Source: Gemmatimonadota bacterium
GTDB taxonomy: Bacteria; Gemmatimonadota; Gemmatimonadetes; Longimicrobiales; Gaopeijiaceae
Length of the DNA stretch: 24,207 bases
Direction of reading: 5' to 3'
Assembly (NCBI GenBank): GCA_039589315.1
Contig: JBDHHQ010000064.1
Location: 1-24,207 of the forward strand
The notes beneath the pieces are model-generated. The model did no database searches and was not told where the DNA came from. It worked only from the letters and a program-made list of their open reading frames with translations. Positions 872 to 17,902 of the stretch are shown here, in pieces. Numbering within the stretch: position 1 is the first letter of the stretch; each line of letters starts with the position of its first letter. A program made the translations under genes and the position numbers.

Positions 872-1807
872 CTAGACCGAATGCAGGCGTTCCCGGAGCG
901 CCCTGAGATGGCCGCCGCGCCGCTCGGGGCGTGTTCCTGTCGCGCCGCCCTCGTCGAGGACCGGCACGTCAACCGCGCCGAATCGGTGTTTGAAGAGAGC
1001 GACGCCGGGTTGACCCTCGCTGATACCCAGGTTGACTGCCGCCACGCCGTCCCGGGCCGCTCGGCTCAGCAGCTCCTTCACTGCCAGGTACATGGCGCTG
1101 ATCGCTCGTCCGTCTGCCGACTGGGCCGCGAGCCAGGCGACTCGGTGCGACCCACGGTCGAGCGCCAGGACGGAGGCCACCACGTTCCCGGCGAGCTCGA
1201 CCTGGTGAAGCCGCCCCAGGCCCCGCGCGCAGACCTCGCGGATCAGCATCTCGGGGTAGCGGTACCAGTGGCCTCGAGACGATCCGGCGTACAGGGCGAG
1301 GAACGCCTCGGGATCGCTGGTTACCGAGGGGGTGGCACCGGCCAGTGCTGCCAGGCGCAGCGCTCGCCGGCCCTTGGACCGCAGCCGAGCCTCCACGCTC
1401 GTGCCTCGGGACAGGAGCACCACGCCGGTCCAGCCGCCCACGACGCCGCCGTGGTGATGCGTCGTGGTGCCCTTCGCCCCGGGAAGTGGCACGGACCGGC
1501 AGTGGATCCGCTCGACGCCGGCACGCCGCCGCGCGAGCTCCAAGACGGCCTTGACCTCGGCCTTGTGGAGCCGGCGGGTCGCGTGCACCCCTCCGTAGCT
1601 CAGAGGGAGGGACTCGGCCCGGCCGTCCTTCGCCAAGAGCGCCACGGCCGCGAGTGTGCCGTCGCCCAACGCGAAGCCGCAGCTCACGTCGGTATACTGG
1701 GGGAAGCAGGCGATCCACGCCTCTCGGTACTGGGGCAGGTCGAATGGACCGCCGCTCCGCTCCAGGAGCTGCAACGCCCTCTCGTCGTCCACCAACCGGA
1801 GGCTCAC
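872..1807 (-). CDS. FemAB-like / Acetyltransf_6 GNAT-fold acyl- or aminoacyl-transferase
   Basis: GTG at 1807 overlaps the methyltransferase TGA (GTGA); 311 aa. Motifs SLPLSYGG, RSKGRRALR, VNLGIS and GVALFKHRFGA are typical of FemAB-related GNATs. Confidence 0.7.
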   Translation of the reverse strand: MSLRLVDDERALQLLERSGGPFDLPQYREAWIACFPQYTDVSCGFALGDGTLAAVALLAKDGRAESLPLSYGGVHATRRLHKAEVKAVLELARRRAGVERIHCRSVPLPGAKGTTTHHHGGVVGGWTGVVLLSRGTSVEARLRSKGRRALRLAALAGATPSVTSDPEAFLALYAGSSRGHWYRYPEMLIREVCARGLGRLHQVELAGNVVASVLALDRGSHRVAWLAAQSADGRAISAMYLAVKELLSRAARDGVAAVNLGISEGQPGVALFKHRFGAVDVPVLDEGGATGTRPERRGGHLRALRERLHSV

Positions 1808-2694
1808 GACGGGCCCCTGTGGCAGAGATAGTACAGCCACCAGTGCTCGCTCAGGTCCGCCTCGAGCCGCGCCGTGCACTCCCGCCCATCCGGAGTGAAG
1901 ACGCGCACCTGGTGGAATCCCGCATCCCGAAGCTGCCTGACCTGCTCGGCGGGTCGCACGTAGTACTTGCGGATCTGGATTCGCTCGTCCGGCGCGTCGT
2001 AGAAGCCCGGGGAGAACTCGTACCGGGGGCGCTCCTCGGAGATCAACCGATACGGCACCCTCGCCAGGCTCGCCGGAGCCCCGTTCAAGCGCCGCCAACG
2101 CACCGCGCCCGCGACGGCACGCCGCAGGAGCCGGGCACTTCGCCGGACACGAGCCCCGGACCGCAGGCCGACCGTCATGGCTTCAGCGGCGGCCCGAGTC
2201 ACGGAGCTCCGGCGCCGGGCGAAATCGAGGTTGTGGGAAGAGAAGACGAAGGCCCCTCCCGGCCGGCTGAGTCGAGCCATTTCGGCAAGGCATGCCAAGC
2301 GGTCCGCATGGTCCCCGACGAGGTCGATGCCGTTGAAGCTGAAGAGCACGACGTCGAAGGAGGCGGTCTCCAGCTCCGGCAGCCGACGCGCGTCGCCTTC
2401 GGCAAACCGGCAGTCCCGGTGGAAGCGATCATCGAATCGCGCCGCTGCCGCGTCCACCATGGGTCGAGACACGTCCACGCCCAGGTAGCTGGCCACCAGG
2501 GGAGCGAAGTGGAGCGTCGTGCGTCCCGCACCCACGCCCATGTCCAACATCCGACCGCCCTGCAGGGAGGGTCGGAGGACGTCCAGGATCCGCCGTTCCG
2601 GCTCCAGCAGCCAATCCAGCGCTGTGTACTCGCCCACGACGTCGGACCGCTCGAAGTAGGCCTCTGTCGTCTCGGGCGTCGCCGGGATCCTCAC
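1804..2694 (-). CDS. Class I SAM-dependent methyltransferase
   Basis: GTG at 2694 overlaps the ABC transporter TGA (GTGA); 296 aa. Motif I MLDMGVGAGRTT, then YLGVDVS, EGDARRL, FDVVLFSFNGID and RPGG. Confidence 0.85.
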   Translation of the reverse strand: MRIPATPETTEAYFERSDVVGEYTALDWLLEPERRILDVLRPSLQGGRMLDMGVGAGRTTLHFAPLVASYLGVDVSRPMVDAAAARFDDRFHRDCRFAEGDARRLPELETASFDVVLFSFNGIDLVGDHADRLACLAEMARLSRPGGAFVFSSHNLDFARRRSSVTRAAAEAMTVGLRSGARVRRSARLLRRAVAGAVRWRRLNGAPASLARVPYRLISEERPRYEFSPGFYDAPDERIQIRKYYVRPAEQVRQLRDAGFHQVRVFTPDGRECTARLEADLSEHWWLYYLCHRGPS

Positions 2695-4550
2695 CGAACG
2701 CCGCCGCCTCCCGCGGAGCCGCTCGCCAGGCCGGCTGGCCAGTAGGCGGCGGCCTGAGCCTCGAACAGGTGGGCGTACGTGCCGCCCAGGCCCATGAGGT
2801 GCTCGTGCGTGCCCACTTCGATGATGCGGCCCCGGTCCATGACGTAGATGCGGTCGGCCATGCGCACCGTGGAGAAGCGATGGCTGATGACCAGGACCGC
2901 CCGGTCCCGTGCGATTCTTCGCAGCTCCTCGAACACCTGGGCCTCGGCGGCGGCATCCAGCGCGCTGGTCGGCTCGTCGAGGACGAGCAGGTCCGACTCC
3001 GAATAGAACGCCCGAGCCAGCGCGATCTTCTGCCACTCCCCGAGCGACAGCTCCTCCCCCTTCTCGATCCACGTCCCGAGCATGGTGTCGTAGCCACGGG
3101 GCAGGCTGCCGATAACCCCATCCGCCCCAGCCCTCCGCGCCGCCGACTCCACGTCCCCCGGGACGGGATCCCTCGCGACAGCGCCGAGCCGGATGTTCTG
3201 TCTCGCCGACATCTGGTACCGGGAGAAGTCCTGGAAGACGACCGCGATGCGCCGGCGGTACTCCCGGGGGTCCATGTCCCGCAGGTCCACGCGGTCGACG
3301 GTCACCACGCCGTCATCGGGATCGTAGAAGCGGCAAAGCAGCTTGACGAGCGTCGTCTTTCCCGAGCCGTTCGCACCGATCAGAGCCACCATCTCGCCTG
3401 GTGCGACGTCGAGGGTGACGTCGTGGATCAGGTCACGGTCGCTCGTCGGGTACCGGAAGCTCACGCCTTCGACGGCGAAGCCGACACTGATCGGGGCAGG
3501 GACCGGCTGCGGTCGCTCCGGAGCGCTCACGGACGGCTCCAACGAGAAGAACTCGTCCAGCATCCCGATGAACAGGTTGTCCTCGTAGAGGCCGGCCGCC
3601 GCGGAGAAGGCCGACTGGAGCAAGGACTGTCCTCGCTGGACGGCGCCGAAGTACATGACCAGGTCACCGATGGTCAGTCGCCCCTGGACCGTCTGATAGG
3701 CGATGAAGGCATACGATCCGAAGACCACGGCCGAAACGACGACGTGCGTGAGGACTTCGGCCTGGCTGCGGCGCCTGGACAACGCGATCCGCTCGCCGCG
3801 GAGCTGAGCTCGCAGCCGTCGGAACCAGTCGTCCAGGAAGGGGCCGAGATCGTAGAGGCGCACCTCCTTCGCGTGCTGCTGCCCTGTCAGCAGCCACTGA
3901 ACGTAGTTCGCCTTGCGCTGGATCCCGGCCCGGTCGACCTGCCACTGGTAGGTCTCGTTGGCGAACCTGATGCGAACGATCAGAGCAGGAATCACCGCCA
4001 CGAACAGCAGGGCGGACAGGAGCCAGTGGACCGCCGCCAGCAGCACGATGATCCCCACGATCGTCGCGCTACTTTGACCCAGCGTCAGGAGGTTGCCCAG
4101 GATCCGCTGCGGCCGGAAAGGCCCCTCCAGCTGCGCGCGGTGGAGCGTGTCGAAGTACTTGGGGTCTTCGTAGTACGAGAGGTCCACCTCCAGGGACTTG
4201 CGGTGCAGCTCCTCGAGCACGTGGTCCGTCACCAGGTGGCCCTGCGCCTCCGAGGCCAGGCCTCCTAACGTGCGCGTCACCGCGGTGACCAGCGCGATGC
4301 CTCCGGCGATCGCGATGAGAACCAGCACCCCTCCGAAGCCCTCTTCGCCCTCGCCGGCCACACTCAGAGTGACGGCGTCGACGACGAGCTTCATCAGATA
4401 GAGGGCGATGAGCGGAAGGGCGGCCTGCACCAGAACGAGGCCCGTGCTCACGGCGGTCCATCCGGGGGCTGCCGTCGTGACGAGCTTGAGGGCCCGGCCG
4501 AGGCGGACATGGCGCCGTACCCACCGCGAGAGAGCTCCGGGCACATTCAT
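2691..4550 (-). CDS. ABC exporter, fused permease plus ATPase (lasso peptide D-protein-like)
   Basis: ATG at 4550 overlaps the B2 TGA (ATGA); 619 aa. N-terminal TM helices, Walker A GANGSGKTT, Q-loop VFQDF, signature LSLGEWQ, Walker B LLVLDEPT, H-loop ISHR. Confidence 0.92.
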   Translation of the reverse strand: MNVPGALSRWVRRHVRLGRALKLVTTAAPGWTAVSTGLVLVQAALPLIALYLMKLVVDAVTLSVAGEGEEGFGGVLVLIAIAGGIALVTAVTRTLGGLASEAQGHLVTDHVLEELHRKSLEVDLSYYEDPKYFDTLHRAQLEGPFRPQRILGNLLTLGQSSATIVGIIVLLAAVHWLLSALLFVAVIPALIVRIRFANETYQWQVDRAGIQRKANYVQWLLTGQQHAKEVRLYDLGPFLDDWFRRLRAQLRGERIALSRRRSQAEVLTHVVVSAVVFGSYAFIAYQTVQGRLTIGDLVMYFGAVQRGQSLLQSAFSAAAGLYEDNLFIGMLDEFFSLEPSVSAPERPQPVPAPISVGFAVEGVSFRYPTSDRDLIHDVTLDVAPGEMVALIGANGSGKTTLVKLLCRFYDPDDGVVTVDRVDLRDMDPREYRRRIAVVFQDFSRYQMSARQNIRLGAVARDPVPGDVESAARRAGADGVIGSLPRGYDTMLGTWIEKGEELSLGEWQKIALARAFYSESDLLVLDEPTSALDAAAEAQVFEELRRIARDRAVLVISHRFSTVRMADRIYVMDRGRIIEVGTHEHLMGLGGTYAHLFEAQAAAYWPAGLASGSAGGGGVR

Positions 4551-5011
4551 GACGTCGGCCGATCCGATCGGGCCGGCCCCTGTGGCTCGGAAGCTCCGGT
4601 CAAGGTCGGAAACACGGCGTAGCTCGAGGGAGAGTGCTCTCCGCCGATGAGGATCCGTCCCTCGCTTTCCACCCATGCGTGGGCCTCGAAGCGTCCGTCC
4701 AGGCGCGTCGCGCCGAGGCGTATCGTGGCCGGAGTCCCGACGCGCCGAAGAAGCAGGACGAGAGCGACTGCCTCCACAAGGCAACGATTCCGCCGGACGA
4801 GCCTCTTGCTCACGGCTCCGACCGCCCAGGACAGGCGCTCGGGATCGGGCCCGAGACGTTTGCGGGTGGAGATCCGGCCAGTGAGGTCGACCACGCGAGG
4901 GAACGGAATCACGAGTAGACACAGCCGGGTCAGAGGAACTGCCCAGAGGGCGGACCTCAGGGCTCTCCGTTCCCCCCGGCTCAGTTGCGTCAGCCTCCAG
5001 AGCGTCTTCAG
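4547..5011 (-). CDS. Lasso peptide leader peptidase B2 (transglutaminase-like Cys protease)
   Basis: Catalytic-type motifs RCLVEAVAL and FEAHAWVE. The frame is open upstream of the track start (4912) and reads LKTLWRLTQLSRGERRALRSALWAVPLTRLCLLVIPF, a typical B2 N-terminus. The start is uncertain: CTG at 5011, or a frameshift from ATG at 5019. Confidence 0.88.
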   Translation of the reverse strand: MKTLWRLTQLSRGERRALRSALWAVPLTRLCLLVIPFPRVVDLTGRISTRKRLGPDPERLSWAVGAVSKRLVRRNRCLVEAVALVLLLRRVGTPATIRLGATRLDGRFEAHAWVESEGRILIGGEHSPSSYAVFPTLTGASEPQGPARSDRPTS

Positions 5012-5115
5012 GTTCTCATCCCCGCGTTGAGCGACCTGGCTGTCCGGTCCGCTTCCTCGCTTCGGGACCGTGCGCCGCCTGCAGGGGCGGCGAGACCCCG
5101 CTCACCGAGCCGTCC

Positions 5116-6045
5116 ATGCAAGATTCGTACGCCCGGAGCGCCCAGGGAGCCTGCTACGGCTTCGAGATCCAATCCGCGCTGCCGTTCCGTTACCTTCGCA
5201 CCGGCGGTGGCGTCCCCCTCGCCGTCGAAGAGACCGAAGACGATCTGTCCCGCGGTCCCGGTGACCTTCTGCAGACCTGGAGCCCCGTTACCGGCCGACG
5301 TGCGCTGATCGAGGTCTACCGGCGCACGGACGGCCACACGGTGAGGATCGGCGAGGCGGCGCCCCACTGGTTTCGTCTGTCGACCGACGGCGAATCGATC
5401 CAGGTCTCGGCGACCCCCGACGTGCTGTATCGCGAGATGCTCCTGTGGACGACGCCGGTCACCGTGGCTGCCGTCCAGTCGGGAGCCCTGGCCCTTCACG
5501 CCGCTGCCGTGGACCTGGACGGAGGGGCCGTCCTGTTGGCCGCCCCCAGCGGGTCCGGCAAGACCACCACGGCGACGGCATTCCTGGATCGCGGTCTCCG
5601 GGTCCTCTCGGAAGACCTGACCTGCTGCCGGGTCGAGTCGGGGGTCCAGGTCCTGCCGGGACCGGGCCTCGTCAAGCTCCGCCACGACGTCAAAGCGCTG
5701 CTCTCTTCGGAGGCTCTCTCCCCGGTCCTCGAGACACCCGAGAAGGCACACTATGCCATCGCTCCGGAGCTCAGGGGAACGGGGGACCCCGTGCCGCTCC
5801 GTGCGATGGTCTTCCTGGCGGTTCACGACGGGGCCGTCGAGCTCCGGGACGTCTCGCCCGCTCAGGCCTTGAGGGATCTGTGGGCCATGAGCTTCTACCT
5901 GCCCGACGACGAGAGCCGAGGCAGGTGCTTCGAGGGACTCGGCCGTCTTGTCGCCGGCGTACCGACGTATCGACTCGCCAGGCGTCTGGACCCCGAGAGC
6001 CTCGCCGCAACCCTCGACACGCTGGTCGAGCGATTCGGTGGCTGA
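5116..6045 (+). CDS. HPr-kinase-like P-loop Ser kinase (lasso peptide kinase type)
   Basis: 309 aa. ALHAAAV, Walker A APSGSGKTT and LSED match the HPrK C-terminal fold. It sits inside the lasso cluster. Confidence 0.8.
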   Translation: MQDSYARSAQGACYGFEIQSALPFRYLRTGGGVPLAVEETEDDLSRGPGDLLQTWSPVTGRRALIEVYRRTDGHTVRIGEAAPHWFRLSTDGESIQVSATPDVLYREMLLWTTPVTVAAVQSGALALHAAAVDLDGGAVLLAAPSGSGKTTTATAFLDRGLRVLSEDLTCCRVESGVQVLPGPGLVKLRHDVKALLSSEALSPVLETPEKAHYAIAPELRGTGDPVPLRAMVFLAVHDGAVELRDVSPAQALRDLWAMSFYLPDDESRGRCFEGLGRLVAGVPTYRLARRLDPESLAATLDTLVERFGG

Positions 6046-6068
6046 GGCCGAGATCTGCGCTCGGAAGC

Positions 6069-7862
6069 TCAGCACGTCGAGAGAAACGCGTGGACGGCAG
6101 CCAGATCCTTGGCCCAGAAGAACTCCCAGAGATCGCACTCCTGCCTCCTGATGCGCTGGTCGAGCAGCGCGTAGTCCACGCCGGGCATCCGGAAGTCTCC
6201 GGGGTCGCTCAGCCACCGGCGGAGGGCGCCGTAGTCGATTCGGTCGAAGATGGCGTCGTTGAAGATGGTCTTGTCCTCGCGATCCAGGATCACGTCGGGG
6301 ACCCGGCCCCGTAGCAGATCCCGCACGAGAGGCTTGCTCCCCCGTCGAGGGAACTTCACGTCTGCGGGTAGCCCGAGGAAGAGCTCCCACAGGTCCAGGT
6401 CGGCCCAGGGGCGACGCACGCTGACCCCGGTGAGCGACTGAATGGCGTCGTCGGCCTCGAACGCCAGCGTCGGCCCGTCGAAAGGAGACAGTTGCTCGTC
6501 CCGCCACCCCGTCCAGCCGCTCACCGGCAGATCCGGGTTCATTCGGGTGGGGTCGAGCCAACGAGGGCGGCGGCTCTCCCGCCCGTTCGCCAGGTGGGCA
6601 CCGGCCCTCGTCCTGCGCCAGAGGAAGTAGGCCTTGGGCATGAACGAGTGGGCGACGGCGCGGGCCTGTCTCTTCAGAGGTTCCCCTTGTGCCCGGCGGC
6701 CGGAGAGCTCCCGGAGCGCGGGACCCAGCTTGCCCCTCGTGAGGAGGTGGCTCAGGAGGTGCCGCCTCATGTCGAAGACGAACTCGGCCATTTCGCCGGT
6801 GAGGGTGTTCCGGTACCCGAGCTGCCTAGCCAGCGTCAGGTGCTCCACCGTCTCCGCCAGGGAGATCACAGGAATGGGACTGTCCACCAGGCGTACCCAG
6901 TCGCGGATCCGGTCCGTTGGCCTCGCCGTCGACTCGTACGTGTGGAGCGGCATTCCCAGCTCCTCGGCGACGGCCCGGATGTAGTAGGACTCGTCCACCG
7001 CCGGTTGATCCGGATAGACGGTGGAGAGGGCCGGCAGCGGCCGGCCGAACCGCTCGGGGTAGAGCGGGGCTCCATACGCCGCGATCGCGGGTGAATCCAC
7101 CCCACCGCTCAGGGACACCACGTCGTCCCCAACCAGACAGCGATCCACGGCCTGGGTCCAGAGACCGTCGAAGCGTTCCTGGAGCTCTCCGGGCCCGATC
7201 CGGCTCCGCTCGAGGTTCTTGCCCGGTGCCCAGTACCGGAGACTGCGTTCCGATTCGCCGCGGGCCGTGAGGAGACGAGCGGGCAGGAGCCTCGCCACGC
7301 CGGCGAGGGCGCACCGGTCGGGGGTACCCCGGCGCCCGTAGAAGATGTCCTCGAGCATCTCCGGATCGGGGGAGTACGCGATCTGCGCGCCGGCCACCAC
7401 CTGCTTGGCCTCGGCGCCGACGTAAACGCCCCGGCGATCGGCACGGAAGAAGAGGGGGCGTGAGCCCAGCTGGTCGCGGAACGCCCAGAGGGTCCGCCCG
7501 TCGGTGACCACGACCTGATACGCACCCCGGAGCCTCTGGGGAGTGTCGGTTCCGAAGGCCTCCCAGCACGCCGCGATGGCCTGGGCAGGAGCGCGTCCGG
7601 GGGCGCCGTGTCCTTCCGCCCGCAGCGCGCTCCGCAGCTCGTCCAGGTTATCCAGGAATCCCGAGAACGCCACGACGACGTCACGACCCTCACAGAGGCC
7701 TGAAGCCCCGATGCCGTCGCCTTCGGAGACTCCCAGCACCGCCCGTTCGCGGACGGCCAGGCTGATCTCCCGGCCTCGGTGGGGGGACGCGGCCAGCATG
7801 GCCTTCACCCGGGCGGGCCTCAACTCGGAGTCCCTGAACAGTATACCGGCCACGCACCCCAT
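6069..7862 (-). CDS. Lasso cyclase / macrolactam synthetase (asparagine synthetase AsnB-like)
   Basis: ATG at 7862 (MGCVAGILF); 597 aa. HRG, RDQLGSRPLFF, PP-loop SLSGGVDS, DESYYI, RRPWADLDL and KPLVR...R.DK motifs. It lacks the Cys at position 2 of true AsnB and lies directly downstream of the precursor. Confidence 0.88.
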   Translation of the reverse strand: MGCVAGILFRDSELRPARVKAMLAASPHRGREISLAVRERAVLGVSEGDGIGASGLCEGRDVVVAFSGFLDNLDELRSALRAEGHGAPGRAPAQAIAACWEAFGTDTPQRLRGAYQVVVTDGRTLWAFRDQLGSRPLFFRADRRGVYVGAEAKQVVAGAQIAYSPDPEMLEDIFYGRRGTPDRCALAGVARLLPARLLTARGESERSLRYWAPGKNLERSRIGPGELQERFDGLWTQAVDRCLVGDDVVSLSGGVDSPAIAAYGAPLYPERFGRPLPALSTVYPDQPAVDESYYIRAVAEELGMPLHTYESTARPTDRIRDWVRLVDSPIPVISLAETVEHLTLARQLGYRNTLTGEMAEFVFDMRRHLLSHLLTRGKLGPALRELSGRRAQGEPLKRQARAVAHSFMPKAYFLWRRTRAGAHLANGRESRRPRWLDPTRMNPDLPVSGWTGWRDEQLSPFDGPTLAFEADDAIQSLTGVSVRRPWADLDLWELFLGLPADVKFPRRGSKPLVRDLLRGRVPDVILDREDKTIFNDAIFDRIDYGALRRWLSDPGDFRMPGVDYALLDQRIRRQECDLWEFFWAKDLAAVHAFLSTC

Positions 7863-7951
7863 TTGGCTCAGTCGAGCGACCGGGACCGCCCAACCGGTCC
7901 GGCCCACATCCCGCCGTGCCGATGGCGAGTCTGCTCTGGGGCACGTACGAA

Positions 7952-7985
7952 CGAGGGCCCTGGGACAGATGCCCCAGGACCCTCG
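7952..7985 (-). terminator. Strong stem-loop between precursor and cyclase (partial terminator or mRNA stabiliser)
   Basis: Minus-strand RNA CGAGGGUCCUGGG-N8-CCCAGGGCCCUCG forms a 13-bp stem. Its single non-Watson-Crick pair is a G-U wobble only on the minus strand. It is followed by a weak UUCGU tract. Confidence 0.65.
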
Positions 7986-8019
7986 AACCGCAGTGCGGAT
8001 GTTGCTTCGAACGATCGGG

Positions 8020-8187
8020 TTACTTCGACCCGCAGCCCGGCCAATCCGCGTCGCTTCCGCCTGACATTTCGCAGAACTTGTCGTAATGCCAGGTGGCTCC
8101 GCCGCCCTTCTCGTTCCCACCGGGAGTGGTCCACGTGTTGTCGGCGATGGAGCCCAACTCCCTGACGAACGGCTTCTCGTAGTCCAC
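8020..8187 (-). CDS. Lasso peptide precursor, 55 aa: MDYEKPFVRELGSIADNTW-TTPGGNEKGGGATWHYDKFCEMSGGSDADWPGCGSK
   Basis: GTG start 5 nt after AGAGGAGG. The leader matches YxxPx(L/V)xxxGxxxxxT. The core is Gly-rich with Glu at position 7. Flanked by the RRE and the cyclase. Confidence 0.9.
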   Translation of the reverse strand: MDYEKPFVRELGSIADNTWTTPGGNEKGGGATWHYDKFCEMSGGSDADWPGCGSK

Positions 8188-8236
8188 GAAAGCCTCCTCT
8201 CGAGGATGGTGACGCGTCACTGCCAAGAGAAGGAGT

Positions 8237-8253
8237 TGCAAGCATCGTACCCA
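8237..8253 (-). promoter_or_regulatory. Sigma54 (RpoN) -24/-12 promoter candidate for the precursor
   Basis: Minus strand TGGGTACGATGCTTGCA has GG-N10-GC spacing, close to consensus TGGCACG-N4-TTGCW. About 50 nt upstream of the precursor start. Confidence 0.65.
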
Positions 8254-8320
8254 GTGCCTCGCTTGGCTGCTTGCCCGACCACCGTGGGTTTCCGCGTCCC
8301 TCGAGGGGTGCCAGGTGTTG

Positions 8321-8336
8321 CATCGGTCCACCGATG
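8321..8336. promoter_or_regulatory. Inverted repeat CATCGGT-cc-ACCGATG, candidate activator-binding site
   Basis: Perfect 7-bp arms about 70-85 nt upstream of the sigma54-like element, a plausible position for an enhancer-binding-protein site. Confidence 0.35.
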
Positions 8337-8381
8337 GTGACGTGCATCAGCGACGCTCCCGGTTCCTCGATGCTGACCGCG

Positions 8382-8684
8382 TCATTCGACGAAATCGACC
8401 AATCCAAGCTCTGCCAGGTGCTGGCAGAGCTCCAGCACGTCGTCCGTGACGACCTCGGGTGCGGCGCCGTACTGCTCGACGATCGCGTCCCGTAGCTCAG
8501 CGATGAGGCGCGGCTCACCGATGAGCTCCCAGATTCGCGCGCCCACCTTCTCGAGCGAGAAATAGCCTCCCGAGCGCAAGCTCAGAATCACGATCTCGTC
8601 GTCCAGCCGCGTGGAAACCTGGTCGGGAGCCGCCACCACCCTGGTCGAGAGGTCGGCCAGGAACTGCGGGTCACCGGATTTCAC
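8382..8684 (-). CDS. PqqD-family RiPP recognition element (lasso B1/E protein)
   Basis: About 100 aa from GTG 8684 (GGAGAGG upstream). DEIVILSLRSGGYFSLEKVGARIWELI...EQYG...DVLELCQHLAELGLV is the typical PqqD/RRE pattern. Confidence 0.9.
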   Translation of the reverse strand: MKSGDPQFLADLSTRVVAAPDQVSTRLDDEIVILSLRSGGYFSLEKVGARIWELIGEPRLIAELRDAIVEQYGAAPEVVTDDVLELCQHLAELGLVDFVE

Positions 8685-8760
8685 GGTTCGATAGGCCTCT
8701 CCCCGCGGGGCCGCCGGTGGCCCGCGGGCTGCACGTTGCACCTCGTTCGGGATCGCGGAA

Positions 8761-10062
8761 TCAAGCCGCAGGTTCCGTGCCACGGGACGGTGCTTCAGCA
8801 TTACGATGACCGCGCCAGATTTCCTGCAGGCGAGTGGGATCGCGCAGGTACCCGCCTCCGAGTCGTGCCCAGCGAAGGGCCGGGTACACGAACGACAGGC
8901 TTCGGGGCAGCCGTGCCGCACCGAGATCGCGGTGCGTGGGCGTGAACAGCCGTCGACCGAGATACCGCACTCGATCCCGACGGCGCTCCCGGACCGACAC
9001 GTCGAACGAAACTCGCTCAGCGAGGGCTGGGACCGGCCGGGATTCGAACAGGAGCCACCGTTCCACGTCCACGGCCAGCCGGCGGGCGGCGGGATCGTCG
9101 TCGAGGGCCCGAGCGATCAGCGGCGGCACGGCGGCGTCCAGGACACGCTCCGCCAACGCTACGCCAAGGAGCAGCATCCGCCGCACCCCCAGCTGCCGTG
9201 CCAGGACCAGCGCCTCCTGCCAGTCCTCGGGTGAAGTGATCCCCGCGATGCCCGCCATGTCGGCGATCCACTTGACCCTGGGCCACGGATAGGGTCCGTG
9301 CTTGGCACCGTGGACCGCGAGCACGATGGGCGTGAGCGCCGGGGGAAGGAGCAACGCGTCTCTTCGCTGGAGCTGTCCCATCACCGCGCGGTCCCAGACC
9401 AGCTCCTCGTCCAGGTCGGCGGTGAAGAACTTGCGCGCGAATGCCCAGTGGAGGTCGACGCTCATGCGGTCTCGCGCCCGAGAGAACGGCAGGGCGTATT
9501 CCACCGCCCGCGCCACGCGATGCCGTGCCCCGGAGGGCTCGTACCACGGTGCGTATCCCCGGTCCCGCAGGATCGTCGAGGCCCGGTCCACGTGCTCGGG
9601 CTTGACCAGGACGTCCAGGTCCGAGAACTCGCGAAGAGCCAGGTTGCCGTACACCTGCTCGGCAAGGACGGGGCCCTTGAACGGGATGGCTGGCACCCCG
9701 CCATCGCCCAGGTCCTTCAGGAGCCCCATCAACTCCACGATCTGGTACAGGTTACGGCGCCCGAGCTCGTGGAAACGACCTCGCAAAGAGGTCATCAGGG
9801 TGCCGGGGACCTTGTCCGGCGCAGCGACCGACAGACCGTGGTACAGGAGCGGGACGGTGCCGTGACGGCGGGCCAGCTCCACGACCCGGTCCCAATCGAC
9901 TTCCTCGTCCAGCAGCTCCGACACGAGACGGGAACGCGCCTCGTCCATATGGGCCCGCGCACAGTGGAGGAGCAGCGCCACCTCCAAGGAGCGATCAGAC
10001 GGCCGGGCCGTCGTTCCCCGGGCGTCCGTTCCCGCCGTCGTGCTACGAGCGTGCGCGGCCAC
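8761..10062 (-). CDS. Nucleotidyltransferase family protein (NTP_transf_5)
   Basis: Motifs LLLHCAR, VDWDRVVELARRHG, IPFKGPVLAEQVYG...REFSDLDVLV, VDLHW and HGAKH...KWIAD. Start uncertain (GTG 10062 with GAGGG SD, or TTG 9987). Confidence 0.85.
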   Translation of the reverse strand: MAAHARSTTAGTDARGTTARPSDRSLEVALLLHCARAHMDEARSRLVSELLDEEVDWDRVVELARRHGTVPLLYHGLSVAAPDKVPGTLMTSLRGRFHELGRRNLYQIVELMGLLKDLGDGGVPAIPFKGPVLAEQVYGNLALREFSDLDVLVKPEHVDRASTILRDRGYAPWYEPSGARHRVARAVEYALPFSRARDRMSVDLHWAFARKFFTADLDEELVWDRAVMGQLQRRDALLLPPALTPIVLAVHGAKHGPYPWPRVKWIADMAGIAGITSPEDWQEALVLARQLGVRRMLLLGVALAERVLDAAVPPLIARALDDDPAARRLAVDVERWLLFESRPVPALAERVSFDVSVRERRRDRVRYLGRRLFTPTHRDLGAARLPRSLSFVYPALRWARLGGGYLRDPTRLQEIWRGHRNAEAPSRGTEPAA

Positions 10063-10178
10063 GCCGTCCCTCGGTTCATGGGTCGAGTAAAAGTCCCTGG
10101 GCGGGCGCTCACGAAGGAGACGACCGTCGGACCGCCGGCGACCGACCCTTCGAGCCACGCCCAGGCCCACTGAACCGC

Positions 10179-10195
10179 AGCAAGTGCCATGCCTG
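10179..10195 (-). promoter_or_regulatory. Second sigma54 -24/-12 promoter candidate, upstream of the nucleotidyltransferase-RRE unit
   Basis: Minus strand CAGGCATGGCACTTGCT gives GGCATG-N4-TTGCT with exact GG-N10-GC spacing, in intergenic DNA and oriented into the cluster. Confidence 0.6.
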
Positions 10196-10331
10196 GGCAG
10201 GGCGACACGTGCACCGCACCCTACCGAACCACCAGATCCGTCGTCGCGCGGTGGACGAGGGCGCCCTCCGCCCCGCTGACCGTGAGCTCGTCCGTCCCCG
10301 TTGGCGTGCCGCCGGTGGGCGGTCCGCCCCT

Positions 10332-10361
10332 CGTGCGGCGCTCCCTCCCTGTCCTATCTTC
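10332..10361 (+). promoter_or_regulatory. Sigma70-like promoter candidate for iaaA
   Basis: GTGCGG-N16-TATCTT. A very similar element lies upstream of mmsA. Confidence 0.4.
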
Positions 10362-10458
10362 GCCGACGGACAACTCCCTCCCCACCCGAAAGCTGGCATG
10401 GAGCCTGGCCCTGGACGAGCGAGCCGAGCCCGCGGTAGCCGGTTTCAAAGGAGATCGC

Positions 10459-11451
10459 TTGAGCGGAGACACCGAGGATCGGATCACCGAGGATCGGATC
10501 AGCGAGGTTCGGATCGAGCAGGGCGTCGCGATCCACGGAGGCGTCGGGACGCTCCGTCGGGACGAGATGACCCCGAGCCTGGAGGCGGAGTACCGGGAGG
10601 CGCTGACACGCTCACTCCAGGCCGGCAACGAGGCGCTTCGCTCAGGAGGTACGGCGGTCGACGCGGCCTGCGCCGCCGTTCGGGTCATGGAGGATTCGCC
10701 GCTATTCAACGCGGGACGCGGGTCCAACTTCGACGAGCGTGGCGTCGTCAGCATGGACGCCTCCATTATGGACGGAGACACCCTGGACGCCGGTGCGGTG
10801 GCCGACGTCACGGATGTGCGGTACCCCGTGGATCTGGCGCGGCTGGTGATGGAGCGATCCGAGCACCTCATGCTGACGGGGCCGGGCGCCGCAGCGTTCG
10901 CCCGTGCGAGCGGCGTGGAGGCCACGGAGGCGTCGTTTTTCCACACGGAGCGTCGTTGGTCCGACCTCCAGCGGGCGAAGGAGAGCGGAGGCGCTCGGCC
11001 GAACGTGATCGGATCCGCGGGTCCCACCGGGCGCGCCGGGACGGTGGGCGCGGTGGCCAGGGACCATGCGGGTCGGCTCGCGGCCGCCACTTCCACCGGC
11101 GGCATGGCCAACAAGACCTGGGGACGCGTGGGAGATTCACCGATCATCGGGGCCGGCACGTATGCGAGCCGGCTGTGCGCGGTCTCCTGCACGGGCTGGG
11201 GCGAGTACTTCATCCGCCATGCGATCGCCCACGACGTCCACGCCCGTATGGCACACGGCGGGGTCAGCCTCGCCCGAGCCGTGCACGGCGTCATCTGGGA
11301 CACGCTGGAGGCCCAGGTACCGGGCGCCGGAGGGCTCGTCGCCATCGACAGGGACGGTAACGTGGAGCTGTGCTTCAACACGCCAGGCATGTATCGCGGC
11401 TGGATCGATAGCGGCGGGGCGCACCACGTGGCCGTCTACCGGGAGGGTTGA
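10459..11451 (+). CDS. iaaA: Isoaspartyl peptidase / L-asparaginase (Ntn hydrolase, IaaA type)
   Basis: TTG start after AAGGAGA. Motifs AIHGG, EDSPLFNAGRG, MDASIMDG, GTVGAVA (nucleophilic Thr), ATSTGG, GRVGDSP and SCTGWGEYF. Confidence 0.92.
   Translation: MSGDTEDRITEDRISEVRIEQGVAIHGGVGTLRRDEMTPSLEAEYREALTRSLQAGNEALRSGGTAVDAACAAVRVMEDSPLFNAGRGSNFDERGVVSMDASIMDGDTLDAGAVADVTDVRYPVDLARLVMERSEHLMLTGPGAAAFARASGVEATEASFFHTERRWSDLQRAKESGGARPNVIGSAGPTGRAGTVGAVARDHAGRLAAATSTGGMANKTWGRVGDSPIIGAGTYASRLCAVSCTGWGEYFIRHAIAHDVHARMAHGGVSLARAVHGVIWDTLEAQVPGAGGLVAIDRDGNVELCFNTPGMYRGWIDSGGAHHVAVYREG
10471..10515 (+). repeat. In-frame 15-nt tandem repeat, 3 copies
   Basis: ACCGAGGATCGGATC ACCGAGGATCGGATC AGCGAGGTTCGGATC, encoding TEDRI-TEDRI-SEVRI. 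Confidence 0.85.
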
Positions 11452-11454
11452 GCG

Positions 11455-12102
11455 TTGGCGCGGTGTCCTGGGTGGCGGCTGATCGCCTGCGGCATCGCCG
11501 CGGCTTGGGGATGCGAGACCGCCGAAGAGGTCACCCCGGCGGCGCCGGCCGGGGGGCGCCCGGCCCTGGCCCACGTCCGGGTCGAGCCGGCCAGCGTGCA
11601 ACTGGCATCCCTCGGCGAGTCCATCCGACTCACGGCCGCGCCCCTCGACATCAATGGCACCACCGTGGATGGGGCCCTGGTCACCTGGGCGTCGTCGAGC
11701 ACGGCCGTTGCTGTGGTCGGCTCCACGGGTCTGGTGACGGCGCGGAGCAACGGCTCCGCCACCATCGCGGCCTCGGTCACCGCACGGGGGGGGCACGCGG
11801 TCGGCAGCGCGGGCATCTTCGTGGCCCAGCAGGCAGCCGCCTTGACAGTGTCCCCACCGGACGGTTCCGTGGCACCCGGCGGCACCGTGAAGCTCGAGGC
11901 AGCTGTGGTCGATGCCCGCGGCAACCCCATCGCCGCTCCCAACGTCATCTGGAGCACGACCGACCCGTCTGTCGCGACCGTCGACGAAGGGGGGCTCGTG
12001 ACGGGACTGAGGGAGGGACGCGTGACCATTATCGCCGGTAGCGGCGGCGCCTCCTCCAGGGCGTCGGTGACGGTGGAGCCACGAGGTCGTACGAAGCCGT
12101 AG
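11455..12102 (+). CDS. Lipoprotein with two bacterial Ig-like (Big_2) domains
   Basis: TTG after GGGAGGG. Lipobox-like AAAWGC. Two repeats: VTWASSSTAVAVVGSTGLVTARSNG and VIWSTTDPSVATVDEGGLVTGLREG. Confidence 0.8.
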   Translation: MARCPGWRLIACGIAAAWGCETAEEVTPAAPAGGRPALAHVRVEPASVQLASLGESIRLTAAPLDINGTTVDGALVTWASSSTAVAVVGSTGLVTARSNGSATIAASVTARGGHAVGSAGIFVAQQAAALTVSPPDGSVAPGGTVKLEAAVVDARGNPIAAPNVIWSTTDPSVATVDEGGLVTGLREGRVTIIAGSGGASSRASVTVEPRGRTKP

Positions 12103-12187
12103 TGAGGGCCGCCGCGGGGGGCTCCCCCGGCCCAGCACGGTCCCGCCCGGCGTGCCCCGGGGGCGCGAGCCACCCCCTCGCTCCCGG

Positions 12188-13945
12188 TTACGGCGACTCC
12201 GGCAGCGGGAGGCCCGGTCGCCAGCCTCCGGCGTGCAGCGCCTCCACGAGTCGCAGCACGGCGTCGCGTTGGGCCTGGGAGGAAAGCAGGATCAGGTCCC
12301 CGTCTCGTGCCCACTCCAGCAGGGTTCTGGCGGCCGATGTTTCGTCCTCGTGGACCGACACCGTCTGCTCGGGAGCACCGGCCCGCGCGAGCTCGGAGCG
12401 GATGATCTCGGGAACCTCGCCCCTCTGCCGGCCCCGCAAGTACTCGCCGAGCTCCTTCACGGCCACGCGCTCCGGCCCCAGGGCCCAGGCGGCCCGGGCC
12501 AGGTCCCGGATGGCCTCGTCGCCCCGATCGCCGGCGTGGCCAACCATCAGACCGACCCGGCGGGGCGCGAGGGCCCGCACCAACTGCCCGACGGCCTGGA
12601 AGCCGTGGGGATTATGGACGTAATCCACGAGGATCCACAGATCTCCCACCTCGAATAGGTTGGTGCGGCCGGGGCTCCGCTCGGGCGTCGGGTCGAAGGA
12701 CACGAGCCCCTGCCGGATGGCATGGTCGTCGATCCCCAGCGCACGGGCGAGCGCGGCGGCGCCGAGGGCGTTGGCGACGTTGTAGGCGGCCAGGCCGCCG
12801 AGGGCGGCGGGGACCATGGTCACATCCAGCAGGGGCGCGGTGGACCCGGGCTCCTTTCGCACCAGCCAGCCCTCGCGCACGATCCACGCCACCTCGTCGG
12901 GACCGACCCAGGACGGCAGGCCCCGGCGGCCCGAGCTGGCTGCGGGGTGCGCTCCGTCGGCCGAGATCCAGGTGATGGGCCGGCCCAGCGCCCGGGCGGA
13001 AGGCGCCAACACGGGATCGTCGGCATTCACGACCAGGGGCACCCCGTGGCGCACCGCCTTGGCCACCACGAGCTTGGCGGTGGCGACGTCCTGCACGGTG
13101 GCCACACCCCACTCGCCCAGATGGTCCTCCGCTACGTTGGTCACCAGGGCCGCATGGGCCCGGTCGAGTGCCAGGCCCCGGCGCAGCATGCCGCCCCGGG
13201 CCGTCTCCAGAACGGCCACCTCGACGCGCGGGTCGCGCAGCAGCGCGCGAGCACCGCCCGGACCCGACCAATCGCCGCCATCGGCCAGGGCGCCCTCGAC
13301 GTAGATTCCGTCCGTGCACGTGAACCCGACCTTCCGTCCGGCCGCCTCCACGATCTCGGCCACCATGCGCACGGTCGTGGTCTTGCCGTTGGTCCCCGTC
13401 ACGAGCACGCGGGGGATGTCGTGGAGTTCGGCCCAGGGCACCCGGGCCGGGTCGGGCAGGTCGTCCACCGCCCAGACCCGGCTTCCGGTGCCCAGACCGA
13501 CCGACGCGTGGTCGTCGTCGGACAGGAACGTCAGGCCTCGCTCGGCAGCTGCGGCTCGCAAGCGCAGCAGCGCGGGGTTTCGCTCCCGGTCGATCAGAGC
13601 CTGGAGGCGTGGTGTGACGACGGCCAGTGGTTCCACCGACTCCGACCGACCGACCTCCGCGGCGGCGGCGGCCCAGGCCCATTCGTTGACCTCGGTGGCG
13701 GCGTACAACGCATCCACCGGAGCCGAATGAAAGACGGTCACGCCCTGTTGATATGTGCGCGTGGCGAGCTCCCGATCCCCCCAACCCACGCCCTGGAGGA
13801 TGCTGGCGGCATGGGTCCGCCACGCCTCGAGGAAGGGATCCCGCACGGTCTCCTCGACCCGGCCGTCGATGACCGCCCCGGCGCTGTCGGCCAGGAGGTT
13901 CGGGCCCGTCAGGCGCCTGGAGTCCTCGAGCTCGACGATGGCCAT
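12188..13945 (-). CDS. Cyanophycin synthetase-related Mur-ligase protein lacking the ATP-grasp domain
   Basis: ATG 13945 (MAIVELEDSRRLTGPNL); 585 aa. Motifs VTGTNGKTTT, AVLETARGG, TNVAEDHLG, VNADD, PGRTN, DYVHNP and GDR are collinear with the C-terminal half of the neighbouring CphA. Confidence 0.8.
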   Translation of the reverse strand: MAIVELEDSRRLTGPNLLADSAGAVIDGRVEETVRDPFLEAWRTHAASILQGVGWGDRELATRTYQQGVTVFHSAPVDALYAATEVNEWAWAAAAAEVGRSESVEPLAVVTPRLQALIDRERNPALLRLRAAAAERGLTFLSDDDHASVGLGTGSRVWAVDDLPDPARVPWAELHDIPRVLVTGTNGKTTTVRMVAEIVEAAGRKVGFTCTDGIYVEGALADGGDWSGPGGARALLRDPRVEVAVLETARGGMLRRGLALDRAHAALVTNVAEDHLGEWGVATVQDVATAKLVVAKAVRHGVPLVVNADDPVLAPSARALGRPITWISADGAHPAASSGRRGLPSWVGPDEVAWIVREGWLVRKEPGSTAPLLDVTMVPAALGGLAAYNVANALGAAALARALGIDDHAIRQGLVSFDPTPERSPGRTNLFEVGDLWILVDYVHNPHGFQAVGQLVRALAPRRVGLMVGHAGDRGDEAIRDLARAAWALGPERVAVKELGEYLRGRQRGEVPEIIRSELARAGAPEQTVSVHEDETSAARTLLEWARDGDLILLSSQAQRDAVLRLVEALHAGGWRPGLPLPESP

Positions 13946-13961
13946 GACAGGGCGGCGGAGA

Positions 13962-16757: not shown

Positions 16758-16796
16758 CAGACTGGCGTCCATCTCACCGCCCGGCCCGCCAAGGAC

Positions 16797-17663
16797 CTAA
16801 GCGGGCAGAATGTGCTCGTGCGAGGCCTCTCGGGTGTTCAGATCGAAGGACCAGCCATCGATCAGGAAGTGGATTCGCACGTTGACCACGCAGACGGGCT
16901 GGCCCTCGGAGCGCGCGTAGAGGTTGGAGTACTCCATGTCCGCGGGATCCACCACCGTGATGCTGCCGCTGCCCACGACCTCGAGGCGGTCGTCGGGACC
17001 GATGAAGGCGGCGGTGTCCTCACCGAGACCGAGGCCGACCGCGAAGGGGTTGAGACCCAACGCCGTCATGAGGCGCCCGAGGCGGGCCCGTCGCACGAAG
17101 TGGTGGTCCACCACCACGCGGTTGGTGAGCCCGAGTCCGGGCGCCATGGTCACGAGCCCGCCCTGGGGAAGGAGGCCTTCGCCGCCGAAAGCGATCATGT
17201 GCTCCGACATGAAGCCCGCGCCCGCGGAAGTGCCGGCAACATGGGTCCCTCTCGCGCTGGCGTCGCGGATCGCGCGAGCCGCGGGCGTGCCACCGAGGAT
17301 GGTGGAGAGACGGAGCTGGTTGCCGCCGGTCATGAAGATCCCGTCTGCGTCGCGCAGACCGCGGATCCATTCGGCCCGTTCGCAGTCCTCCCGCCGTGCG
17401 AAGGGAAACGCCCGAGCCGCCCGGACCCCGAGGTCGTGGAAGATCTGCTCGTAGCCCGAGCCCGTGTCATCCAGCTCCGACGCAGTCGGGATGATGGCGA
17501 TCCTGGCTTCGGCCCCGCCGCAAAGATCTGCGAAACGGGAGAGGATCTTCGGATCCCGGAACTTCTCCTCTGCCCCGCCGATGGGCACGATGAACCCCTC
17601 GCGCGTGCCGTCGCGCGTGCGCGCCGCCGAGGGATGGCGCTCTGTGGACTGGGTGCTCGCCAA
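16797..17663 (-). CDS. cphB: Cyanophycinase (peptidase S51), intracellular
   Basis: TTG 17663 with GGAGG upstream. Motifs IGGAEEK, IPTAS, FMTGGNQLRL, nucleophile GTSAGA, DHHF and GLGEDT. No signal peptide; directly upstream of cphA. Confidence 0.93.
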   Translation of the reverse strand: MASTQSTERHPSAARTRDGTREGFIVPIGGAEEKFRDPKILSRFADLCGGAEARIAIIPTASELDDTGSGYEQIFHDLGVRAARAFPFARREDCERAEWIRGLRDADGIFMTGGNQLRLSTILGGTPAARAIRDASARGTHVAGTSAGAGFMSEHMIAFGGEGLLPQGGLVTMAPGLGLTNRVVVDHHFVRRARLGRLMTALGLNPFAVGLGLGEDTAAFIGPDDRLEVVGSGSITVVDPADMEYSNLYARSEGQPVCVVNVRIHFLIDGWSFDLNTREASHEHILPA

Positions 17664-17833
17664 GATCGATGGACCTCCGAATCCGCCAAATGATGTCCCC
17701 GCAGGGCGCGTGCGCTCAACCCCCTCACCCACGGCTCCGGCGTGAAGATATCCCTTTTCCGGGGACAGGTAAGGGGAGCGCCGGACGGTGGCGCCTGTCC
17801 GGGCTGGCCAACCGCTCAGGGGGCGGCCGGTCG

Positions 17834-17864
17834 CGTGCGCCGCTCCTCGCCCGATCCTATCTTC
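17834..17864 (+). promoter_or_regulatory. Sigma70-like promoter candidate for the mmsA operon
   Basis: GTGCGC-N17-TATCTT about 40 nt upstream of ATG 17903. A divergent TATCTT at 17745-17750 on the minus strand faces cphB. Confidence 0.4.
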
Positions 17865-17902
17865 CCCCCTGACCCGTAGCGTCTCCACCACCCGAGGGCA
17901 CC

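Follow-up and report, generated by a model that had tools for sequence, protein, structure and literature searches.

A lasso-related peptide cluster family with a conserved internal lysine, acid and serine in its precursor core

The nine-gene cluster at positions 872–10062 of a 24,207-nt Gemmatimonadota sequence (hereafter, the window) is one of a large family of clusters for peptide modification, most of them from uncultured bacteria; the family keeps the leader and enzymes of lasso peptides and drops the rule that the ring is closed at an acid in core positions 7–9. Because the family has no conserved normal ring position, yet a fixed Lys-to-acid spacing, the side-chain amine of an internal Lys is likely to close the ring, and not the peptide N-terminus as in true lasso peptides. 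For the window member, we give about an even chance to the reading, drawn from sequence, that the cyclase joins the side chain of Lys8 to Asp17 (or Glu21), after which Ser would be phosphorylated and further decorated. Our literature search found no description of this precursor or cluster family, and none of a lasso ring-forming enzyme that closes a ring through a Lys side chain. A sequence-only reading of the same DNA had called the locus an undescribed lasso-machinery RiPP cluster with an atypical precursor; these points are borne out, and the family-wide misfit of the core to a normal lasso ring, which that reading passed over, is a stronger point than the combination of four tailoring enzymes on which that reading was built.

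Gene content and conservation of the cluster

Profile and ORF analysis placed all nine genes, with their expected domains, in 872–10062. Four genes on the minus strand, encoding a 311-aa FemAB-like GNAT (872–1807; Acetyltransf_6, PF13480, 32 bits, cut-off 22, with a weak match to FemAB-type TIGR03019), a 296-aa class I SAM methyltransferase (1804–2694; PF13649, 63 bits, and PF08241), a 619-aa MsbA-like ABC exporter recognised by domain profiles (2691–4550) and the lasso B2 leader peptidase (4547–5011; NF033537, 86 bits, cut-off 33), overlap by 4 nt (ATGA/GTGA) at each junction, and this suggests that they form a single coupled operon. The Cys77, His111 and Trp113 positions of B2 are invariant in 26 aligned B2 proteins; its start is probably the CTG at 5011, and the frame upstream of it is conserved in a second genome of the same genus (G001). 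The kinase gene (5116–6045) lies on the plus strand, opposite to the rest of the cluster, and encodes a 309-aa HprK-like peptide kinase that scores under the Pfam and NCBIfam cut-offs (TIGR04352, 53.9 bits), aligns to HPr kinase structures and keeps the invariant His128, Walker-A Lys149 and Asp167, with Glu166 at the first Asp position, as in the family consensus. The remaining minus-strand genes encode an asparagine-synthetase-like macrolactam synthetase of 597 aa that is homologous to lasso cyclases (6069–7862; PF00733), the 55-aa precursor (8020–8187; GTG start preceded by GAGGAGG), a 100-aa stand-alone RRE of the PqqD-like B1 type (8382–8684; PF05402, 59.5 bits; NF033536, 54.2 bits, under cut-off) and an NTP_transf_5 nucleotidyltransferase-like protein (8761–10062, with the start between 9987 and 10062; PF14907, 179.8 bits). 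The locus therefore carries the RRE and B2 cysteine peptidase of lasso clusters, the former by PF05402 and the latter with NF033537 above cut-off.

Gene order is identical in G001, spread over two contigs with the break within the cyclase gene, and its precursor gene differs from that of the window by five synonymous codons and one non-synonymous codon. A lasso-leader pattern search of the window genome returned this precursor only. A promoter scan gave 0 sites, and terminator-like sites were at chance (3 vs 2.9 expected). Two cyanophycin-synthetase genes downstream form a separate neighbouring locus. A beta-aspartyl peptidase (10189–11451), considered as an isopeptidase, was discarded because it turned up in this genome and G001 alone and adjoins the cyanophycin genes.

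The cyclase has intact SGGxDS and RxxK motifs and no N-terminal glutaminase Cys, and its homologues agree (LSGGxDS in 119/120, RxxK in 114/120, Cys at residue 2 in 1/120). Since the ATP motifs are kept without the glutaminase Cys, the amine is likely supplied by the peptide. An Asn-synthetase-like enzyme with an ATP site and no glutaminase Cys is what a lasso cluster should encode, yet this one reaches only 93.9 of the 525 bits required for NF033535. Its AF2 model (pLDDT 92.7) has the fold of AsnB, beta-lactam synthetase and TsnB9, with no lasso cyclase among the PDB matches listed, and the family cyclases form one clade (support 0.98). A complex prediction of cyclase, ATP, Mg and precursor scored 0.02 and was used neither for nor against any reading. 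The cyclase had no plasmid match at E 1e-40, and no RNA dataset was among those listed by a sequencing-run search. Cyclase Glu356 occurs in 89/99 loci of the motif type described below and in 2/5 others, a link to core type that is only suggestive.

The family includes 201 cyclases (among the candidates scored) and 309 precursor clusters at 50% identity, and those of its hosts that carry a name are mainly MAGs of Actinomycetota, Chloroflexota and Gemmatimonadota. Gene co-conservation was counted in the 41 loci whose flanks were complete. The kinase (40/41) and NTP_transf_5 (35/41) are core genes of the family. The RRE is present in 39/41 and B2, the sole protease among the recurring cassette genes, in 38/41; a two-gene ABC-2 type exporter replaces the MsbA-like one in 31/41. 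The methyltransferase and GNAT pair, in contrast, is a rare add-on (1/41). The proposal that all four tailoring genes define the family thus survives the co-conservation check of the nine genes for the kinase and NTP_transf_5 and fails for the methyltransferase and GNAT, the four being found together only in the window and G001. The pair occurs in three lineages (the window genus, L052 and L078), and in L052 and L078 the contig carrying it has no NTP_transf_5. The GNAT clade comprises the window genome, G001, L052 and L078, with none in 400 other genomes of the phylum or in 400 other genomes of the class of L052; the GNAT adjoins the methyltransferase in every locus where it was seen, its Atlas matches are Acetyltransf_6/FemAB (0.96), and a PDB sequence search gave no match. 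The methyltransferase falls in a separate top group of 54 proteins above 260 bits, and its PDB matches are generic. Two proteins of the methyltransferase clade match two cyclases in the length of the longest contig (29546 and 10891), a hint that further copies may be co-located.

The conserved pattern of the precursor

The precursor leader (residues 1–19; 8131–8187, minus strand) is of lasso type, with YxxP, Gly12 and Thr18 at position -2 of the cut site. Tyr3, Pro6, Gly12 and Thr18 are conserved across the family, the last three without exception in 62 aligned leaders; NF033521 was matched at E up to 1 by 39 of the 62 (best 1.8e-05), the window member giving no match. The invariant Thr at -2 fits the normal B2 cut site. 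The core (8020–8130, minus strand) has 36 aa plus the stop and contains Cys20 and Cys33; an arm of Thr1–Glu7 precedes Lys8 (8107–8109), Asp17 (8080–8082), Glu21 (8068–8070) and Ser23 (8062–8064).

A search with the single precursor sequence recovered two near-identical copies only, and the precursor family was gathered from cyclase-adjacent loci and a profile. Among 113 unique cores that lie beside these cyclases and were selected by leader alone, 104 contain D/E-x3-4-E-x-S, and every one of the 104 has a Lys 6–11 residues upstream of the first acid. This Lys stands 8 or 9 residues before the acid in 90/104, compared with a mean of 16.5 and a maximum of 29 upon shuffling. Asp or Glu is absent from core positions 7–9 in 82 of these cores and present in 22, and only 2/22 sequence-cluster representatives have an acid there. 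In the pooled set, in which the motif counts of 150 added precursors are circular because the profile used to choose them contained the K/D/E/S columns, Lys is found in 244/246 motif-bearing cores, at positions ranging from 5 to 47, with a Lys-to-acid spacing of 8–10 in 229/244; an internal E-x-S/T is found in 240/246, partly by motif definition. Acids at positions 7–9 occur in 54/246 pooled cores vs 56.7 by shuffling, which is the chance level, so that the conserved Asp/Glu of lasso cores is missing across the family. The sequences counted are related, and their independence is overstated; the automated counts also carry blemishes (L060 is a misfit, the Lys of L025 is misassigned, and a few cores offer two Lys to choose from). 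Atlas matches to the precursor (0.89) are to unnamed clusters and serve as a lead only.

Cysteines bear on the fate of the N-terminal arm. The number of arm cysteines is odd in 52 cores, and in 50 of these 52 the total is even, with arm cysteines pairing with Cys beyond the Lys. Cys3 and a Cys directly after Glu occur both together in 32 cores, singly in 2 and not at all in 211, and cores with arm cysteines occupy several distinct branches in the tree of cyclases (L078/L083, L086/L091, L061, L067, L108, L013). Because Cys3 co-occurs with the Cys after Glu, the arm is likely retained.

Ring closure and alternative readings

Under the Lys8 reading, the RRE would bind the YxxP leader, and a B2 cut after Thr18-Trp19 would release the 36-residue core with its 7-residue N-terminal arm. 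The cyclase would adenylate the acid, probably Asp17 and possibly Glu21, and attack by Lys8 would give a 10-residue side-chain lactam with arm and tail; the data do not tell the two acceptors apart. The kinase would phosphorylate a Ser, most likely the near-invariant Ser23 of E-x-S and alternatively Ser35 near the C-terminus, and NTP_transf_5 would put a nucleotide or sugar on the phosphate, as proposed for PsmN. A Cys20–Cys33 disulfide would form after ABC export. The methyltransferase and GNAT would act as an optional module, with the freed N-terminus, Lys18/Lys36 or the appended sugar as candidate targets. With about 35 atoms, the predicted ring would exceed those of lasso peptides in size, and the product could plausibly be branched or locked by a disulfide. 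A doubtful extension has the cyclase homologue making two lactams, one between the Lys side chain and Asp and the other between the new N-terminus and the Glu of E-x-S, since the family conserves two amines as well as two acids, and the pairing of Cys3 with the Cys after Glu puts the N-terminus beside that Glu. If true, this would be a new RiPP class, with a bicyclic, possibly interlocked phospho-glycosylated peptide and a variable loop of 5–47 residues, in several phyla.

Several observations stand against closure through Lys8. Two of them favour long-leader lasso peptides, a rather unlikely reading in which the core would be cut again behind the conserved Lys, exposing Gly9, and a normal ring would join Gly1 to Asp9 in the new numbering. 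Counted inclusively, the residue after Lys sits 8–9 from the acid, as in a normal lasso core: it is Gly in 115, Asp in 60 and Ser in 40 of 244 cores (together 215/244), rings of 8–9 would result in 194/244, and the Glu-acceptor subfamily would have a ring of 8 in 15/15. Moreover, four loci nested in the cyclase clade (L018, L139, L136, L155) have normal-looking Asp8 cores without the motif, and the clade is therefore likely able to use an N-terminal amine. However, the arm cysteines pair across the proposed cut, the recurring genes include no second protease, and Thr never varies at position -2 of the normal cut site; the ring sizes would also span 6–11, with Pro, Met, Leu, Ile and Glu found after Lys. 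The normal nucleophile would also serve in a large ring from Thr1 to Asp17 or Glu21, with the Lys kept for recognition or acylation, for example. There is some conservation at core positions 1–4 (Pro or Cys at position 3 in 63%, Gly at position 4 in 57%), and Cys3 pairing puts the N-terminus close to E-x-S, but this ring would range from 14 to over 50 residues, whereas lasso cyclases, as described in PMC13352647, tolerate even a one-residue change poorly. No acyltransferase common to the family was found in the 41 full-flank loci to account for the invariant Lys, and we regard this ring as unlikely.

The window core also has Glu7, which makes a normal 7-residue ring formally possible. An ordinary paeninodin-type lasso with a Thr1–Glu7 ring and all four tailoring enzymes acting, close to what the sequence-only reading had in view, would also agree with the overlapping B2-ABC-methyltransferase-GNAT operon and with a leader, RRE, B2, kinase and NTP_transf_5 matching those of paeninodin and pseudomycoidin clusters. 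It is nevertheless quite improbable: Glu7 is kept in only 2/12 listed cores of its own closest subfamily, both near-identical, and the chance-level acids at 7–9, the NF033535 shortfall of the cyclase and the rarity of the methyltransferase and GNAT pair all stand against it. That there is no ring at all, the carboxylate being amidated or capped with ammonia to leave a linear peptide that carries phosphate and sugar and is linked with polysaccharide loci, we think very improbable. Asn-synthetase-like RiPP enzymes also amidate or form nitriles, according to PMC13060819, glycosyltransferase or polysaccharide genes lie near 34/41 full-flank loci, and the kinase, NTP transferase and RRE kit is shared with linear polyphosphorylated peptides as reported in PMC13381572; yet the cyclase is without the glutaminase Cys, and the fixed Lys-to-acid spacing would be left unexplained.

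If the cyclase does use the internal Lys, it would staple side chains at a set spacing, whatever the long variable arm. Such closure would be new chemistry for the lasso cyclase family and a useful cyclisation tool. Lasso mining tools assume that the N-terminal amine closes the ring at an acid in positions 7–9, and Lys closure, if true, would explain how expression screens restricted to predicted lasso masses could overlook these peptides.

Comparison with known systems

In lasso peptides, the alpha-amine of residue 1 closes a ring through which the tail is threaded, and the acceptor is, by the definition in PMC9266682, a conserved Asp or Glu at core positions 7–9. The window cluster resembles those of paeninodin (pade) and pseudomycoidin (psm) in its split RRE and B2, Asn-synthetase-like cyclase, HprK-like kinase, NTP_transf_5 and ABC exporter, and the kinase and NTP_transf_5 are co-conserved with the cyclase. 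Clusters of this kind have been reported from within loci for capsular polysaccharide (PMC9266682; PMC13381572). Whereas paeninodin and pseudomycoidin use the N-terminal amine, an acid at 7–9 and a C-terminal Ser, an internal Lys...Asp...E-x-S is conserved here. The window precursor ends in Ser-Lys, which weakens the analogy drawn with the paeninodin kinase; across the family, 58/104 cores have a C-terminal Ser, and 85/104 have Ser within the last two residues. The kinase of paeninodin and pseudomycoidin type is described with His-Lys-Asp-Asp, whereas that of the window has Glu-Asp.

Class V lassos (gelatinamin A, lariocidin B) have an isopeptide bond formed by the side-chain amine of a Lys, and in the gelatinamin type the clostripain-like transpeptidase GelP is reported to close a second ring from Lys2 to the C-terminus on an Ala1–Asp8 lasso (PMC13178200). 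The lasso-related peptide predicted here is alike in this use of Lys. It differs in that no clostripain-like transpeptidase was found in the window or among gene families recurring in three or more loci, so that the cyclase is the candidate. It counts against the Lys8 reading that the Lys side-chain lactams known from lasso peptides come from this separate transpeptidase and not from the cyclase (PMC13178200). Graspetides and microviridins carry Lys-to-Asp/Glu side-chain lactams at fixed spacing, made by ATP-grasp ligases; they share the idea of a fixed-spacing Lys–acid lactam, but 872–10062 encodes no ATP-grasp ligase.

Lasso genes with a neighbouring gene for a GNAT or a SAM methyltransferase are also known from albusnodin/IatT and lassomycin/StspM. 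StspM was reportedly modelled on the mitomycin-O-methyltransferase-like family; the window enzyme, of Methyltransf_25/11 type, differs from it in family description, and the suggested lassomycin-type methylation, the work of StspM/LasF-like O-methyltransferases, is a weak parallel. So is albusnodin for the GNAT, which at 311 aa and as a FemAB-like Acetyltransf_6 protein differs in size and description from the 178-aa AlbT (PMC12070363). Albusnodin-type lassos pair a small AlbT/IatT GNAT with a core Lys10, whereas the FemAB-like GNAT is in 1/41 loci here. Linear polyphosphorylated peptides, as described in PMC13381572, share an RRE, HprK-like kinase, NTP transferase and MsbA-like transporter, and have a signal peptidase and no cyclase, whereas the cyclase was the means of assembling the present family, and 38/41 of its loci encode B2.

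Cluster layout, flanking genes and distribution

The window is one complete contig. All nine genes that the sequence-only reading placed at 872–10062 were found with the domains it had named. From 10062 on the minus strand, the order is NTP_transf_5, RRE, precursor (55 aa, GTG start, GAGGAGG site) and Asn-synthetase-like cyclase, followed by the kinase on the plus strand, convergent with the cyclase. B2, the ABC exporter, the methyltransferase and the GNAT are on the minus strand with a four-base overlap at every junction. Gene order is the same in the congeneric genome G001, where it is spread over two contigs, and the precursors of the two genomes differ by five synonymous codon changes and one non-synonymous change. 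No in-frame ATG, GTG or TTG lies ahead of the conserved N-terminal helix of B2 (5005–5025, minus strand); downstream of a G-rich site, an ATG starts a frame of three codons, whose stop overlaps the likely CTG start of B2. Because a second genome (locus L009) shares this arrangement, it is not a sequencing slip, and CTG initiation, re-initiation or a −1 shift are candidate routes of translation.

Outside the window genus, the genes that flank the cassette (DUF3575, beta-aspartyl peptidase, Big_2 and cyanophycin genes) did not recur with it. The cyanophycin locus (10189–17921; order identical in G001, L010) encodes a beta-aspartyl peptidase, a Big_2 protein, a 604-aa CphA-like protein with no ATP-grasp match, a full cyanophycin synthetase and a cyanophycinase. 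A 569-aa membrane protein (22476–24185) had no Pfam or NCBIfam match; by eye only, its appearance is of GT-C type.

Among 8000 candidates scored, 201 cyclase relatives had E up to 1e-20, with identities mostly of 42–55% in the 120 listed; the nearest named relative (L012, 91%) is labelled Gemmatimonadota. Loci were gathered with a 34-sequence cyclase alignment (best 80 of 115 confirmed genome loci and best 80 of 309 metagenome loci), and most of the named hosts listed are Actinomycetota, Chloroflexota or Gemmatimonadota MAGs. A single match listed comes from a named strain, Phytoactinopolyspora halotolerans (L091), which has cyclase and precursor, with kinase, B2 and NTP_transf_5 all absent within 10 kb. 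Cassette distribution is patchy, since among the 60 nearest relatives searched a close match occurs only in G001 and a further genome, G029. The family forms one clade (support 0.98) in a 54-sequence tree, separate from AsnB-like proteins and from the second, more typical lasso-type cyclase of L061. That locus (7618–18939) holds two adjoining lasso-type cassettes, one of the window family and the other with the more typical cyclase and an Asp9 core.

Tailoring genes across the family

Co-conservation was scored in 41 loci having 8 kb or more of flank on each side; six listed repeats (L095, L096, L110, L126, L152 and L158) were left out, and the remaining loci are still partly kin. The precursor is present in 41, the kinase in 40, RRE in 39, B2 in 38, NTP_transf_5 in 35 and an ABC-2 exporter in 31, whereas the clades of the window's methyltransferase and GNAT occur in one locus each, so that co-conservation holds for the kinase and NTP_transf_5 and fails for this pair. 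Commoner accessories than the pair are a 2OG-Fe oxygenase (13/41), a HemK/PrmA-like methyltransferase (10/41) and a sulfotransferase (9/41); glycosyltransferase or polysaccharide genes lie near 34 of the 41. In all, HemK/PrmA-like methyltransferases of about 400 aa were seen in 32 (e.g., L021:12085–13284; L089:14458–15657), the oxygenase in 23, usually adjoining a GT2 gene, and sulfotransferases in 19.

The methyltransferase and GNAT pair was found in three lineages (the window genus, L052 and L078), always within or touching the cassette, and searches of 400 further genomes from the phylum and 400 further ones from L052's class found no member of the GNAT clade. For these reasons the pair looks cassette-specific yet optional. 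Because the cores of the three lineages are unlike, action on a site common to them, for instance the free N-terminus or an appended sugar, would fit. NTP_transf_5 is absent from the L052 and L078 contigs, and thus all four tailoring genes were seen together only in the window genome and G001: the four-enzyme combination, first read as the mark of an undescribed multiply modified family, is real but local.

Lysine-to-acid spacing and the candidate ring

With a leader-only profile, 136 of 164 loci yielded a total of 139 precursors. Their unique cores number 113, and 104 of these contain D/E-x3-4-E-x-S. A Lys stands 6–11 residues ahead of the first acid in all 104, and at 8 or 9 in 90 (shuffle mean 16.5, maximum 29); 82 have no acid at core positions 7–9, the defining lasso position according to PMC9266682. 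A precursor profile search gave 309 clusters at 50% identity, and its best 150 pooled with the locus set gave 259 unique cores. The motif is present in 246 of these and the Lys in 244 of the 246, although motif counts in the added 150 are circular, as the search profile holds those columns; arm length (core residues before the Lys) and cysteine pairing depend far less on that profile. Lys-to-acid spacing is 8–10 in 229 of 244, while Lys position ranges from 5 to 47, and acids at 7–9 occur in 54 of 246 (56.7 expected). The precursor profile search also returned P0389 (199 aa), in which a lasso-like leader unit occurs in four copies; it may be a multi-core precursor belonging to another family.

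The window core has Lys8, Asp17, Cys20, Glu21, Ser23 and Cys33. The predicted cyclase model (pLDDT 92.7) resembles AsnB, beta-lactam synthetase and TsnB9 in fold. Of 120 homologues, 119 retain LSGGxDS and 114 retain RxxK; the glutaminase Cys is missing, with a Cys at residue 2 in just one of the 120. With ATP motifs kept and that Cys gone, the enzyme likely adenylates a carboxylate and takes its amine from the peptide; simple amidation would be highly improbable. B2 would cut at the normal site, as Thr at −2 is invariant, and the cyclase would then join the Lys8 side-chain amine to Asp17, the most likely partners because the constant distance runs from Lys to acid and not from the N-terminus to acid. 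We put closure through Lys at about an even chance. Glu21, with spacing about as tight, is possibly the alternative acid. The same distances make a large N-terminal ring improbable, and an ordinary Thr1–Glu7 lasso is still harder to credit, since of the 12 subfamily cores listed just two, near-identical to each other, have Glu7.

In the main rival, a second cut follows Lys: Gly, Asp or Ser comes directly after it in 215 of 244 cores and would form normal 8–9 rings, and normal-looking Asp8 cores are carried by four loci of the cyclase clade (L018:12061–12314; L139:4125–4226; L136:969–1079; L155 near 4108). We nevertheless consider it unlikely, since a second recurring protease is lacking and the arm cysteines are paired: cysteine number is even in 238 of 244 pooled cores and in 50 of the 52 with an odd count before Lys, and Cys at core 3 and Cys directly after Glu occur together in 32, one alone in 2 and neither in 211. 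Arm cysteines pair with those after Lys, which is most simply explained by an arm that is retained in the product and adjoins E-x-S. Two of the four Asp8 cores start with Lys1, and three of the four cyclases have lost the Glu of the TGE motif; these loci are a possible reversion to normal lasso cores and a natural control pair. On the Lys-closed reading, the kinase would phosphorylate the Ser of E-x-S (58/104 family cores end in Ser; the window precursor does not), and NTP_transf_5, by analogy with PsmN, likely decorates the phosphate.

Relation to known systems

What outweighs the four-enzyme set is that a widespread, lasso-derived family departs from the ring rule in its cores, and does so in a specific and testable manner. 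In the literature covered, which leaves most subscription papers and MIBiG outside, neither this family nor a Lys ring made by a cyclase was found described. The nitrilobacillin paper (PMC13060819) counts about 300 uncharacterised asparagine-synthetase-like RiPP enzymes, and the metanodin paper describes four split-B soil clusters with no product at predicted lasso masses; some of these clusters, or of the entries in large lasso-mining supplements, may belong to this family.

In its parts the window cluster resembles those of paeninodin and pseudomycoidin, but paeninodin-type substrates end in Ser (PMC9266682). Lacking a conserved acid at 7–9, the family is not filed with the lasso peptides. 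In graspetides, Lys side-chain lactams are made by ATP-grasp ligases. In class V lassos, such lactams are described as the work of a separate transpeptidase (PMC13178200), whereas here the cyclase itself is proposed; if the Lys link is true, this would be a new class.
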